A DNA stretch of 64,000 nucleotides from a virus (Duplodnaviria; Heunggongvirae; Uroviricota; Caudoviricetes): IMG/VR virus record IMGVR_UViG_3300024341_000001, one strand, 5' to 3'. The position numbers and the translations under genes were made by a program. The first letter of the stretch is position 1. Each line of letters begins with the position of its first letter. Positions 13,750 through 21,106 of this stretch are shown here, in pieces. Under the pieces are notes generated by a model, which saw only the letters and a program-made list of their open reading frames with translations, was not told where the DNA came from and did no database searches.

Positions 13750-14274
13750 CTAAATTTTTATATTAGCTAATGCGGCAATCTTTATAAATGCCTCCGCATT
13801 GCCTTTGGCGTCGTTAACGGGATTATGATCGTGAGGCGTTTCACGCATAAACTTGAATGATTTATAAAAATTTTTAACGATGCCTTTGTACAACCAATTG
13901 ATATTTGCGGACGAGTGTCCGAAAGGATTCTCTCCCATAAAATGATAAAAATACCAACAAATAAACATCCAGTCAAAACCATTATTATCCGATATAAAAA
14001 TAGGACGTTCATCTGGTTTAAGATTTTCCTTTATCCAACGGAAAAACAAGTTCATTACTACTAAAGGCTTTTCAAATTTTTCTGTTTCTTCTCTAGTCAA
14101 TCCAGAAATTTTTAACGCATCTTCCCTATAATATTTGCTAATAGGTTGCAGTTTGCCTTCAAAAGTTCTAGCTAACCCCGGTTCTACGATCACGGCACCA
14201 AACCAGACCATCGAATAATCGCCTGGTATCGGGCCGTCGGCTTCAACATCAACTGCTATATATTTTATCGACAT
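13750..14274 (-). CDS. DEDDh-type 3'-5' exonuclease (DnaQ/oligoribonuclease-like)
   Basis: Exo I AVDVEADGP, Exo II ISDNNGFDWMF, Exo III HDHNPVNDAKGNAEAF. Confidence 0.55.
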   Translation of the reverse strand: MSIKYIAVDVEADGPIPGDYSMVWFGAVIVEPGLARTFEGKLQPISKYYREDALKISGLTREETEKFEKPLVVMNLFFRWIKENLKPDERPIFISDNNGFDWMFICWYFYHFMGENPFGHSSANINWLYKGIVKNFYKSFKFMRETPHDHNPVNDAKGNAEAFIKIAALANIKI

Positions 14275-15113
14275 TAGTGAGTCCTATCATATATTATTAC
14301 AAAATCACAATGTAGCGCACGACAAATTTCTTCTTCACGTTTAAGGTCGTACCAAATTGTTTTATCGTGATATTTTTCATAAACTTCGTATACCGTATTG
14401 GTTTTATAACAATAACCGTCGACAAAGAAATTTAATATCTGTATTCCACGATGAATCACGCATTGATCAATTTTTTCTTGTTTATCCAATAGTTCCTTTT
14501 CATTAGTCCCCATCGTAACCAAAGTGTCTTGTGCAGCGCAGGATCTACATTTTGTAGATTTATTGGATTTTATATTTGCTAATTGCACCACCCAAAGTTT
14601 ATTACATTTTGGACAAATACAATTTACTCGCTGCTGTCGTCTGCCCTTGGCTTTTTCTGCCCTACTTAAAACAAGAATCCCATTTATAGTTGCCGGTAAT
14701 TTCAGATGTGCTTTTTTAGTTTCAGCACTTGTAATACGCCCACACTTTTTACATCGACGGGCTCGACCGCTTTTTATAGAAGCAAGCTGGGTAGTAAATA
14801 TTTTTTCACACATGGGGCATATATAATCTACAAGTGCGGCACGTTTATGTTTTTTTGAACCGGGATAATATTTTATTATTTGTATATTATTTATTATACA
14901 GGGCACTTTAAATCCAAATTTAGTAGCTTTAGTCTTTGCAGCTACTTGTCCACCGCATTTTTTACAGTGGTTTGCGCGCCCTAGACGTATATTCGTTAAT
15001 ATAGTTTCCCAAGGTTTTTCACACATTGGACATATACAGAGGGCTCTTCTAGGTTCCCTAAATTTTGTTATAGGATAAACTTGTATAACTTCTATATCAT
15101 TTATTTTTTCCAT
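14274..15113 (-). CDS. zinc-finger repeat protein with a C-terminal nuclease-like domain (possible homing endonuclease)
   Basis: Three tandem CxxC...CxxC modules (CICPMCEK...HCKKCG). Confidence 0.4.
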   Translation of the reverse strand: MEKINDIEVIQVYPITKFREPRRALCICPMCEKPWETILTNIRLGRANHCKKCGGQVAAKTKATKFGFKVPCIINNIQIIKYYPGSKKHKRAALVDYICPMCEKIFTTQLASIKSGRARRCKKCGRITSAETKKAHLKLPATINGILVLSRAEKAKGRRQQRVNCICPKCNKLWVVQLANIKSNKSTKCRSCAAQDTLVTMGTNEKELLDKQEKIDQCVIHRGIQILNFFVDGYCYKTNTVYEVYEKYHDKTIWYDLKREEEICRALHCDFVIIYDRTH

Positions 15114-15124
15114 GAAGAACCTAC

Positions 15125-18867: not shown

Positions 18868-19845
18868 CTAAAGGGTATTTACCGTTTTTGCCGAATCGTA
18901 CTCTTGAATATTACTATTCAAGACGGCTCTTAAATCTGTTTTAATCTTTTCAATATCGTTATAAAAATCATATTCCCAAACTACTATATACTTATATCCT
19001 TTTGAAAGAAAGTATTTTTTCTTTCTAAAATCCTTCTCTATTGTGCACAGTTGTTTATTAGTTTTATCCGAGAAAAATCGATTATCTCCGTGCCAATACG
19101 ATCCGTGCATTTCCAAAATTATTTTTTTATCTATTAAAAAATCTAGTTGCCAACGATCAATTTTGACGTTATGTTCGAACGGAATTTTTAGTTCTTTTAA
19201 TATCTTCTTCATGTTCGCTTCCAACGAAGATGTATACTGAGGCAATGATAACAACTTCATACCGTATTTTTGAAGTTTATGATGTATACTTGCGGTACTT
19301 CGTCTCAATAAAATTGCCAGACTTTTTACATCTAGTCTTTTGTACCACTTTTTTAAAAGTGTTACATCTTTCTTCGACCACAAACAGTAAGTTTGATTTC
19401 GTTTCGGACCATTATTTTTGTGTAGATCTAAAGAATATGCGATTGTAGTTAATGCCGAAATGCTTTTATTTAACTGTAAAGATAATTCCCTATTCGGCAT
19501 GATTGCATAATTTTCTTTTAGAAACCACAGATCTTTTTCCGCCCATGCTATATTAGGTCTAGTTCTTTTTACAAGTTTAAATTTTCTAGCATATGCTGTT
19601 ATAGCAGCTTTTTTTCGCTTTAAAGCCTTGGTCAAAAAATTCCAGTTTCCATACTCATAATTTTCTTTAAGTATCTGTATATCTTTTTCAGACCATGTTT
19701 TATAGCTTCGAAGTTTTAGATTTTCGGCTTTATCTCGGATAGCCGTGTATGTTCGATTAAGTATTTTTGATAATTCTTTTGGTGTTTTACAATTATATTG
19801 ATCTTTTAGTATATTTAGTTCTTGTTCTGTCCAATGCTTTCCCAT
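18868..19845 (-). CDS. homing-endonuclease-like protein: Myb/SANT-like HTH repeats plus a C-terminal Vsr-like (PD-(D/E)xK) endonuclease domain
   Basis: Repeated W-x-E-x-L/I HTH modules. The C-terminus (ILEMHGSYWHGD...GYKYIVVWEYD) resembles Vsr (FVHGCFWHGH...GWRVLIVWE). Confidence 0.55.
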   Translation of the reverse strand: MGKHWTEQELNILKDQYNCKTPKELSKILNRTYTAIRDKAENLKLRSYKTWSEKDIQILKENYEYGNWNFLTKALKRKKAAITAYARKFKLVKRTRPNIAWAEKDLWFLKENYAIMPNRELSLQLNKSISALTTIAYSLDLHKNNGPKRNQTYCLWSKKDVTLLKKWYKRLDVKSLAILLRRSTASIHHKLQKYGMKLLSLPQYTSSLEANMKKILKELKIPFEHNVKIDRWQLDFLIDKKIILEMHGSYWHGDNRFFSDKTNKQLCTIEKDFRKKKYFLSKGYKYIVVWEYDFYNDIEKIKTDLRAVLNSNIQEYDSAKTVNTL

Positions 19846-20161
19846 ATAAATAATATACTAAAAGTTTTGATTAAAAGCAATTTTTGGGACCATCTGTTAT
19901 AAATATTATATCAGCCTTTTTCCACTGTTTTTCATCACCAATTTTAACCCTCGCCCAGTCTAACGGGGGCTCGAATTCTGTTCCCAATGTGTTATCGTCA
20001 AGTTTATTATCTTGACTTCTATAAGTTTCCTTATAGTTCAGCGTACATTTTCATCTCTAGAGATGTTCAGCACTCTTGGATAGATTATATTTATTCACTA
20101 TCTACGCGTTACAGTGACAATCTACCTTTCGTAATTAGATTGTTTACCTCGGTATTAACAA

Positions 20162-21106
20162 TTAAGTCTTCACCGATTTTGCTGAATTATATTCCTTGAT
20201 GTCACCATCAAGTACGGCTTGTATGCCTTTAGCAACTCGTGAAAAATCTTCATTTATATCTTTTTCCCACAGGATAATTAGCCTATATCCTTTGGAACGT
20301 AATAACTTGTATTTACGACGGTCCTTTATTAATACTTTTCTCTGTTTTATGTTTATTGGTTTACGAAAAATACGTCTATCACAGTGCCAATAAGATCCGT
20401 TAGTTTCTATAATAACATCATTATCTAATAAAAAATCAACTCGATAAGAGGCAATACGTACTTGTACATTGAAGTGTATATTTTGAGAATTCAAATAAAT
20501 TTTTAAATCATTCTCAAGATAAGATGTATTATTTTGCGTCAACCCTAATCGCGTTAATTTATGATCTACGGCCGCCCTGGTTTTACCTAATATTTTTGCC
20601 AGCGCTGAATGTTTTATTTTGGTATAATTCTTTTTTAGAAACTTTACATCTGTTGTTGACCACCATTTTGTACCATGTAACCGCATTGTACGTGCTTTGG
20701 CGCTAACTGTCGAAAAACTTTTGTCCGGGAATTTAGCATGAAATGCTTTGAAGCCTCCGGTTCGATAAACTTTTCTTAGATGATCTGTTTCTTCTTTAGT
20801 CCAGCGTCGAAAATATAAGTGTAATTTTGTCGCTTTATTTTTTACTGACATAATTTCACGTTTTAATGTCTTCGCGATTTCAGCAGGACTCATTTTTAAA
20901 TGATTATCTATAAGAAACTGTACCTCGGGTGCTAACCATTTATTCTTTTTAAATATCCCCCATTGAAGCGCTCGGTTATTTAACGTCTTAGGCTTTACTC
21001 CTAAGCGTTTGGCTAAAACTTTAGTACTTGTAATAGGATATAATTTTTTAATTAAAGATTTTTCTTTTTCTGAGTAATAATAATTGTTCATATTAATAAT
21101 ATACAA
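20162..21106 (-). CDS. paralogous homing-endonuclease-like protein (HTH repeats plus Vsr-like nuclease)
   Basis: IIETNGSYWHCD...GYRLIILWEKD; clear paralog of 18868-19845. Confidence 0.55.
   Translation of the reverse strand: MYIINMNNYYYSEKEKSLIKKLYPITSTKVLAKRLGVKPKTLNNRALQWGIFKKNKWLAPEVQFLIDNHLKMSPAEIAKTLKREIMSVKNKATKLHLYFRRWTKEETDHLRKVYRTGGFKAFHAKFPDKSFSTVSAKARTMRLHGTKWWSTTDVKFLKKNYTKIKHSALAKILGKTRAAVDHKLTRLGLTQNNTSYLENDLKIYLNSQNIHFNVQVRIASYRVDFLLDNDVIIETNGSYWHCDRRIFRKPINIKQRKVLIKDRRKYKLLRSKGYRLIILWEKDINEDFSRVAKGIQAVLDGDIKEYNSAKSVKT

Follow-up and report, generated by a model that had tools for sequence, protein, structure and literature searches.

The td- and nrdB-type group I introns of phage T4 belong to subgroup IA and carry intron-encoded endonucleases of the GIY-YIG or HNH type, with the open reading frames (ORFs) located in loop P6a or P9.1. 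The prototype enzyme of the EDxHD family, I-Bth0305I, combines an N-terminal NUMOD/helix-turn-helix (HTH) region with a Vsr-like domain containing the catalytic residues Asp196, His213 and Asp222; its ORF resides in a group I intron of the recA gene of phage 0305phi8-36 (PMC3239194). We analyzed a 64,000-nt stretch of DNA (referred to hereafter, as a whole, as the window) from IMG/VR record IMGVR_UViG_3300024341_000001, a ~215-kb phage of the class Caudoviricetes. Positions 22393-18484 on its minus strand very probably make up a single gene for the vWA partner of a MoxR ATPase, cut by two group I introns, each encoding a predicted endonuclease of the I-Bth0305I type.

The likeness to the intron of 0305phi8-36 is that of a phage group I intron encoding a protein with a Vsr-fold C-terminus and an N-terminal HTH-type region. 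The nuclease domains in the window are 31-34% identical to that of I-Bth0305I and keep the equivalents of its catalytic Asp/His/Asp, and 0305phi8-36 also has a MoxR-vWA operon. The systems differ in host gene (vWA here, recA for I-Bth0305I), in protein size (309-325 aa with four HTH units here, 266 aa for I-Bth0305I) and in ORF placement, since the window ORFs sit in loop L1 and overlap the segment from the internal guide sequence (IGS) to P4, whereas I-Bth0305I interrupts P5 (PMC3239194). Similarity between the ribozyme sequences of the two systems was not detectable by nhmmer and, unlike I-Bth0305I, the window has two introns 96 nt apart in one gene. A closer ribozyme was found in Acinetobacter phage vB_AbaM_ME3 (KU935715; ~2275-3625), where an intron of the same ribozyme family (nhmmer E=5.6e-15), unannotated in the record and not detected by Rfam, accompanies ME3_88 (‘DNA mismatch endonuclease’), a protein of the same endonuclease architecture with 28% identity over 81% of its length. 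As in the window, the ME3 ORF precedes the ribozyme core, GGU closes the 5' exon and G is the final intron nucleotide; the differences are that the host gene is recA, split in its P-loop codons, and that the ORF ends at the IGS and does not reach P4. Like the td and nrdB introns of T4, the window introns have a compact ribozyme in which an additional hairpin, P7.1, separates P7 from P3' and GNRA loops cap P2 and P9; in both groups the reading frame soon meets a stop past the 5' splice site, and the endonuclease gene has a promoter to itself (a candidate one here).

Between 11 and 24 kb of the window, every gene is encoded by the minus strand. The ORF at 21116-22393, which follows a bpMoxR ATPase gene, covers only positions 15-417 of the 515-position phrog_24053 profile; the intact vWA homologs of Moorella phage MTATph1 and Bacillus phage 0305phi8-36 have 493 and 553 aa, respectively. 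The vWA C-terminus was found as two pieces, one of 96 nt between the endonuclease genes (19984-19889) and one at 18684-18484. Joining 22393-21134, 19984-19889 and 18684-18484 yields an in-frame protein of 518 aa, which spans both junctions in alignments with intact homologs and has the invariant GGT and ITDG motifs at the junctions. Because the exons join in frame and the product aligns continuously with intact homologs, the three segments are taken to be one split vWA gene, laid out as follows (MIDAS, metal ion-dependent adhesion site; HSP, high-scoring segment pair):

22390..23535, minus strand: bpMoxR AAA+ ATPase gene (Pfam bpMoxR 3.5e-46), operon partner of the interrupted vWA gene
21134..22393, minus strand: vWA exon 1, 420 codons, ending ...TTTGAAAACGGT with U at -1; aligns with intact vWA proteins (MTATph1, 0305phi8-36 and the metagenomic relatives L012 and L013)
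19985..21133, minus strand: predicted group I intron 1, 1149 nt; site ENG^GTE within the MIDAS ‘GGT’ motif; bounds from the in-frame exon join
19889..19984, minus strand: vWA exon 2, 32 codons (GTEFEPPL...ADIIFITDG), without a start codon of its own; a separate tblastn HSP
18685..19888, minus strand: predicted group I intron 2, 1204 nt; site ITDG^ES; bounds from the in-frame join
18484..18684, minus strand: vWA exon 3, 66 codons plus stop; matches the C-terminus of intact homologs
21134 joined to 19984, minus strand: predicted ligated junction of exons 1 and 2, ...TTTGAAAACGGT followed by GGAACAGAATTC...
19889 joined to 18684, minus strand: predicted ligated junction of exons 2 and 3, ...ATAACAGATGGT followed by GAATCTGCCGTT...

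Exon 2 aligns with intact vWA homologs between the invariant GGT and ITDG. Three metagenomic relatives that were found via their MoxR gene (L012, L013 and L014) have uninterrupted vWA genes, each of which matches the spliced product in one HSP of 500-520 aa at 43-56% identity, and the MoxR-vWA pair is kept in all relatives examined. A megablast search of the region against sequenced phages returned no match, and a scan of IMG/VR viral contigs with the spliced vWA protein returned no relatives. Expression of the vWA protein through a split intein or as a ‘fractured gene’ was considered and ruled out, as intein motifs are absent, exon 2 is startless and a covarying ribozyme is present.

The two intervening sequences end in predicted ribozyme cores:

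19985..20218, minus strand: intron-1 ribozyme core (IGS, P2-P7, P7.1, P8, P9, P9.1 and omega-G); it shares 57 nt at its start with the 3' end of the ORF
18685..18927, minus strand: intron-2 ribozyme core, from Rfam and covariation; it shares 60 nt at its start with the 3' end of the ORF

Intron 2 matched Rfam RF00028 at 62.2 bits (gathering score 50; E=1.2e-15; 18941-18720) in a scan of 18670-19010, a query of 341 nt that takes in the 3' end of the ORF. This was the only scan to place intron 2 above threshold: a scan of the 11 kb at 13000-24000 in E-value mode returned nothing, and when the query was limited to the non-coding tails, the match was sub-threshold or absent. Rfam scans thus miss these introns unless the query is short and contains the 3' end of the ORF, and ORFs that overlap a ribozyme core may systematically hide introns from such scans.

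Intron 1 was tied to the family by nhmmer (E=3e-57 for its core), and four further introns of the same family were collected from related-phage contigs (L003, L004 and L005). Covariation was assessed on a plain MAFFT alignment of the six intron cores that was not fitted to a structure, with the structure being named explicitly (P2-P9.1 with the P7 pseudoknot) and comprising 58 pairs in 11 helices. The intron of L013 was left out of this count, as MAFFT misregistered P9/P9.1 when given seven sequences, and its helices were checked by eye. Among the six introns, standard pairs occupied 92.6% of cells, compared with 31-38% when partners were slid by 1-3 columns; 41 of the 58 pairs had changed on both sides, and none of 500 shuffles reached the observed values, the P3/P7 pseudoknot included. 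P7 alone occurs in three variants (GCGUA:UACGC, GACUA:UAGUC and GCAUA:UAUGC). Every core helix common to the six introns is present in intron 1, and the J8/7-P7' segment of intron 2 is an exact copy of the AAGAUAUAGUC consensus.

The splice sites have the expected marks as well. In all seven family members the U at -1 of the 5' exon pairs with a G of the IGS and is followed by 2-6 further pairs, making seven pairs in the P1 of intron 2 (U.G plus 6). The last intron nucleotide is G (omega-G) in 7 of 7 (intron 1 ends ...ACATTG and intron 2 ...ATAATTG), and an in-frame stop occurs 0-8 codons past the 5' splice site, likewise in 7 of 7 (6 codons into intron 1). With high confidence, both intervening sequences are therefore predicted to be self-splicing group I introns.

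The distance from the 5' splice site to the IGS is 6 and 58 nt in two ORF-less introns of the family and 692-968 nt in the five ORF-bearing ones; since a long L1 occurs only in introns with an ORF, the ORF is considered an insertion in loop L1. The ORFs extend 57-60 nt beyond the IGS, such that their last 19-20 codons are also the IGS, P2, the 5' strand of P3, and P4. Few parts of the protein are as conserved as the encoded tail, AVL..(D/N)(I/L).(E/D)Y(D/N)SAK(T/S)V, yet the tail lies beyond the region alignable with I-Bth0305I, and it may be conserved because it doubles as ribozyme RNA (IGS-P4). Compensatory changes in P2 alter amino acids (LNSNIQ versus LDGDIK), which suggests that selection in P2 acts on the RNA. 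Whether the C-terminal tail amounts to a clear case of protein/RNA dual coding is a tentative proposal, which we put forward jointly with a reading of intron spread by reverse splicing (see below) and which, taken together with it, is rather improbable.

The proteins encoded within the introns are as follows:

20162..21091, minus strand: intron-1 endonuclease gene, 309 aa; four HTH repeats and a predicted EDxHD/Vsr-like nuclease
18868..19845, minus strand: intron-2 endonuclease gene, 325 aa; four HTH repeats and a predicted EDxHD/Vsr-like nuclease

A previous reading of the window from its letters alone (the sequence-only reading) had listed three homing-endonuclease-like genes in this part of the window, with 18868-19845 and 20162-21106 as paralogs bearing Myb/SANT-type HTH repeats and a Vsr-like nuclease, and 14274-15113 as a third gene with a triple zinc-finger array. 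The three ORFs are present on the minus strand at these coordinates, although the likelier start of the intron-1 endonuclease is the ATG at 21091 and not the TTG at 21106, as it is used by gene callers and aligns with the start of its paralog. By BLASTP, the two proteins are 31% identical over their full length (E=3e-41), in agreement with their description as paralogs. An AlphaFold2 model of the 325-aa protein (mean predicted local distance difference test (pLDDT) score of 82.9) consists of four three-helix units followed by an alpha/beta domain, and the four units are similar to each other (z=7-10 vs shuffles); four such units were seen per protein, so the HTH repeats stand. Their Myb/SANT label was not upheld. 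The three-helix repeat with its leading Trp looks Myb-like, without a significant match: no Myb/SANT match was obtained in Pfam at E<=0.1, the SANT chain of DMAP1 (3hm5) scored E=0.65, and Foldseek matches to the Myb-repeat proteins Reb1 and Cef1/CDC5L reached E=0.13-1 only.

The Vsr fold of the C-terminus, whose absence would have contradicted the sequence-only reading, was recovered by both sequence and fold. The 325-aa protein matched PDB entry 3r3p at E=5.5e-8, and the 309-aa protein matched Vsr of E. coli (1cw0) at E=1.7e-4, 3r3p at E=4.7e-4 and Pfam DUF559 at 7e-6. In Foldseek searches with the 325-aa model, the best match was again 3r3p (template modelling (TM) score 0.77 on the target, 31% identity, E=2.7e-5), followed by Vsr 1cw0 (E=2.6e-4). 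According to its structure description line, 3r3p is the catalytic domain of I-Bth0305I (PMC3239194). Between I-Bth0305I and the 309-aa paralog the alignment spans 275 aa (E=4e-12), a length which shows that the relation reaches into the N-terminal region. The PADLOC model ‘HEase’ matched the 325-aa protein at 3.4e-10, and D235, E245, H252 and D272 are invariant in a seven-member family alignment, where they align with the corresponding positions of 3r3p. In all likelihood, both paralogs are EDxHD homing endonucleases of the I-Bth0305I type, as predicted from these sequence and model comparisons. A word-indexed search found 8 relatives of this protein family, compared with 21,726 cluster representatives at E<=1e-3 (502 at E<=1e-30) in an exhaustive profile search, dozens of which are ~300-330 aa long and align end to end. 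The predicted HTH plus Vsr-like architecture is hence common in metagenomes and poorly annotated.

Candidate promoters were recognized between the 5' splice site and the ATG of the endonuclease genes:

21098..21127, minus strand: sigma-70-like promoter candidate of intron 1, TTGCAT-17-TATATT with the ATG 6 nt on; listed by the scanner
19852..19880, minus strand: sigma-70-like promoter candidate of intron 2, TTGCTT-17-TATATT with the ATG 6 nt on; read from the sequence and unlisted by the scanner

In five introns, this interval contains a TTGACA-like hexamer, a 17-nt spacer and a TATATT-like hexamer, with 5-6 nt to the ATG. This conservation across introns leads us to infer an internal promoter that would produce a nearly leaderless endonuclease mRNA.

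Comparison with the related phages reveals occupied and empty sites for this intron family:

vWA site a, SMDG^TPEI: in L005; ORF-less, keeping a remnant of the endonuclease C-terminus
vWA site b, PEI^WAK: in L003; encodes a 254-aa endonuclease with a zinc ribbon and one HTH unit
vWA site c, ENG^GTE: window intron 1 only
vWA site d, ITDG^E: window intron 2, L003 and L005
L013 17211-17457, 247 nt: ORF-less group I intron of the same family in a glycosyltransferase gene, MNKKKLLIW^(C)DAPTVKTG

The four vWA sites, distributed over three genomes, all lie in or beside MIDAS-motif codons. All are empty in L012, L013, L014, MTATph1 and 0305phi8-36, with site c being empty in L003 and L005 as well, and the DNA at the empty sites of relatives closely resembles the ligated junctions of the window. 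The glycosyltransferase gene is uninterrupted in the window (8530-9828) and in L012, and the P-loop codons of ME3 recA are split by a related ribozyme together with a related endonuclease. The sequence-only reading had held that conservation of the three genes in all relatives would speak against mobility; they are not conserved, as both introns and the third gene are absent from L012 and L013. That relatives have introns at other sites, without an ORF, in another gene, or not at all argues for mobility of the predicted introns. The two paralogs would be neighbors because their introns have one and the same short, conserved stretch of a single gene as target. A recent tandem duplication was ruled out as their origin, as the intron-2 endonuclease is 52% and 44% identical to the site-d endonucleases of L003 and L005, respectively, versus 31% to its paralog in intron 1.

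Eight copies of the intron have been seen at six distinct sites in three genes (vWA, glycosyltransferase and recA). The 5' exon ends in GGU in seven of the eight and pairs with a nearly constant IGS (GCC...), and the exception, GAU, has a matching IGS (GUC). ORFs at different sites encode endonucleases with different DNA-binding modules, as if the endonuclease had been re-fitted after the RNA moved. The family may, by a reading that we regard as speculative and on balance doubtful, reach new sites by reverse splicing in addition to endonuclease-driven homing. Two observations were made on L005. Its site-d intron (~1723-1812) contains a perfect 45-nt tandem duplication over P3-P4-P5, which is either an assembly artefact or real, in which case the core has two alternative 5' halves. 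At its site a (~155-170 vs 454-470), the 13 nt with which the intron opens (AATCCGGAGATGG) are similar to the beginning of the exon that follows (ACCCCAGAAATTTGG), in what looks like a partial target-site duplication.

The explanation that we strongly favor on these sequence and model data is that EDxHD enzymes drive the homing of group I introns in the classical manner. The introns would be excised by guanosine-initiated transesterifications and the exons religated, such that the vWA gene would remain functional. Ribosomes arriving from the upstream exon would halt at the in-frame stop a few codons into each intron, and each endonuclease would probably have a promoter of its own and a nearly leaderless mRNA. 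It would bind a long target through its four HTH units and, in a co-infecting relative whose vWA allele lacks the intron, cut that allele close to the MIDAS-motif codons; the intron would then spread when the break is repaired from the copy that has it.

The third gene is separated from the paralogs by ~3.4 kb and lies at the edge of a variable block:

14274..15113, minus strand: predicted free-standing endonuclease-like gene, 279 aa; three zinc ribbons and a C-terminal DUF559/Vsr-like domain
9829..15124, minus strand: variable block of 5.3 kb with the third endonuclease gene, a DEDDh exonuclease gene, a gene similar to that of the major vault protein (MVP) and two ORFs
13750-14274, minus strand: 174-aa DEDDh exonuclease, PADLOC ‘effector exonuclease’ 1.3e-37
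11262-13742, minus strand: 826-aa protein with MVP shoulder and repeat domains (MVP_shoulder 9e-27)

In tblastx synteny comparisons, L012 and L013 are collinear with the window up to 15143 and resume at 9798, with L013 having ~1 kb of unrelated DNA in between; the third gene is thus absent from both. The triple zinc-finger array described previously was found to be three zinc ribbons (CxxC-N18-CxxC) in units of ~70 aa each (z=13-23 vs shuffles), and the protein ends in a nuclease domain that had gone unremarked. Homologs resemble it over the last ~80 residues only (50-63% identity), most of them having NUMOD3 repeats where it has zinc ribbons; 13 of 19 family members match DUF559 at E<=0.01 (best 3.6e-6), and 11 of 19 have NUMOD3. 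The C-terminal domain was modeled at a pLDDT of 90-98 and has the alpha-beta-beta-beta-alpha-beta order of the nuclease in the paralog model, and its nuclease module forms a subfamily of its own (DGYCxETNTVYEVYEKYH).

Several results weigh against placing this protein with the DUF559/Vsr-like nucleases. Its own DUF559 score (16.6 bits) is below the Pfam cut-off of 20.6; its best PDB fold match is 3r3p, with E=0.02 and a TM-score of 0.59; comparison of its family with the paralog family by hhalign gave a probability of 0.3%, which is not significant; and its family profile had no match among PDB sequences. With moderate confidence, then, the third gene is assigned to free-standing modular endonucleases of the same nuclease superfamily, which bears out its earlier description as homing-endonuclease-like. 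It resembles the free-standing NUMOD homing endonucleases of phages in having a short nuclease module tethered to repeated small DNA-binding units, and differs from them in that the DNA-binding part consists of three zinc ribbons (DUF7836-like).

A competing explanation for the third gene only is that it serves as a nuclease of the neighboring cargo, the DEDDh exonuclease and MVP-like genes, for example in a defence or counter-defence module. The stop of the third gene overlaps the start of the exonuclease gene, that neighbor fits a PADLOC effector model, the block is missing as a whole from L012 and L013, and the assignment of the third protein to its nuclease family is held at moderate confidence. 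The third gene itself has no PADLOC match, and its relatives have the nuclease module alone in common, joined to NUMOD3 or other DNA-binding modules in unrelated contexts, as is expected of modular free-standing homing endonucleases. The cargo explanation is therefore regarded as unlikely, yet a serious minority reading. Most likely, the third gene encodes a free-standing homing endonuclease and sits at the edge of the variable block; PMC10055350 describes phage nuclease genes at boundaries of conserved and variable DNA, and the third gene is situated likewise.

For the vWA introns, the first alternative to homing is that they are decayed relics which no longer splice or no longer cut, leaving a vWA pseudogene or immobile passengers. 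The following observations weigh against active homing, and in part favor decay. Intron 1 had no Rfam match even at E<=10; its J8/7-P7' segment (AAAAUGUACGC) has diverged from the AAGAUAUAGUC consensus, with pairing kept through the GCGUA:UACGC form of P7; and its P1 has five pairs only (U.G plus 4). The promoter scan returned 20 sites versus 12.8 ± 3.7 in shuffles, which is no enrichment, and listed one of the two window candidates. Intron content was identical in 15 of the 15 contigs of the window's phage, leaving ongoing mobility within the population unsupported, and ORF-less derivatives in relatives indicate that the family does degenerate. Against decay, neither window intron has lost a core helix and the copies differ from each other by compensatory changes, the exons are stop-free and 54-56% identical to intact homologs along their full length, and both endonuclease ORFs are full length with their catalytic residues. 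Decay is thus considered improbable.

It is less probable still that the paralogs are DNA-binding regulators, repair nucleases or splicing maturases and not homing enzymes. Their annotations point in that direction (phrog_323, ‘transcriptional regulator, D5-like’; JGI name, G:T mismatch endonuclease), and the HTH repeats occur without a nuclease in Listeria phage proteins and many large proteins. The window proteins, however, sit in introns that are polymorphic for presence, their catalytic residues are conserved, and their closest solved structure is that of a demonstrated homing endonuclease (PMC3239194); Vsr-type T:G repair would leave the intron location unexplained. Homing endonuclease activity is accordingly the preferred prediction for both.

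The sequence-only reading had also proposed a hotspot of selfish-element insertion shared with a retron-type reverse transcriptase (RT) and a GC-rich island. The RT gene (16549-17565, minus strand) matched PADLOC retron RT models (best E=3e-71). It is kept at the same position in L004, L012 and L013, together with a 182-aa ORF (orf182) and a 300-aa radical-SAM-like gene. Since the RT is present in relatives that lack all of the introns and endonucleases, it appears to be a resident of the lineage and not a sporadic insertion, and is uninformative on insertion at this locus. The scenario of such a hotspot, where three homing endonuclease genes, all free-standing, had inserted alongside the retron between genes independent of one another, is scarcely credible, for while the genes are endonuclease-like and absent from relatives and a retron-type RT lies 1.3 kb off, the flanking ORFs are three vWA fragments that join in frame, each paralog ORF has a covarying group I ribozyme after it, the 32-codon middle exon has no start codon and the RT is kept in relatives without the introns and endonucleases. 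The hotspot is accordingly not supported, the paralogs being placed in introns of one gene and the RT being resident, and the notion of free-standing genes is retained for the third gene and withdrawn for the two paralogs, each of which is assigned to its own group I intron of vWA, 96 nt apart.

Other features of the neighborhood were noted. The GC-rich island (18029-18271, minus strand; 240 nt), upstream of the RT gene, folds modestly better than shuffles (z=-2.08) and could be a retron non-coding RNA. The companions of the RT gene are a 300-aa protein at 15125-16027 (minus strand) that matches radical SAM weakly (E=6e-4) and, at 16178-16726 (minus strand), a protein of 182 aa without annotation; their presence beside the RT in L012, L013 and L004 suggests a conserved RT-associated set. 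A retron-type RT resident in a jumbo-phage lineage may merit separate study. Further away, at 24830-30910 (plus strand), one ORF of 2026 aa carries Pfam domains of both RNA polymerase beta (Rpb2_3, Rpb2_6) and beta' (Rpb1_2, Rpb1_5); the nearest sequenced phages are 28% identical to it and have this region as several genes, some of which are interrupted by homing endonucleases.

The window introns fit a known kind of selfish DNA and make a clear, fairly ordinary example that is unsurprising to a specialist. Where gene callers list a vWA gene that is cut short, a pair of ‘mismatch repair endonucleases’ and two orphan mini-ORFs, the annotation would become a 518-aa vWA gene with two predicted mobile introns, and the intron family has been overlooked in at least one phage that is in culture and sequenced (ME3). 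The EDxHD intron endonucleases described so far are few, and to these the locus would add vWA, the partner of a phage MoxR ATPase, as a new host gene, and loop L1, with overlap of the ribozyme core, as a new place for the ORF. With four sites in one gene, introns with and without ORFs, and empty sites, the family would provide a natural series for intron gain, loss and re-targeting.

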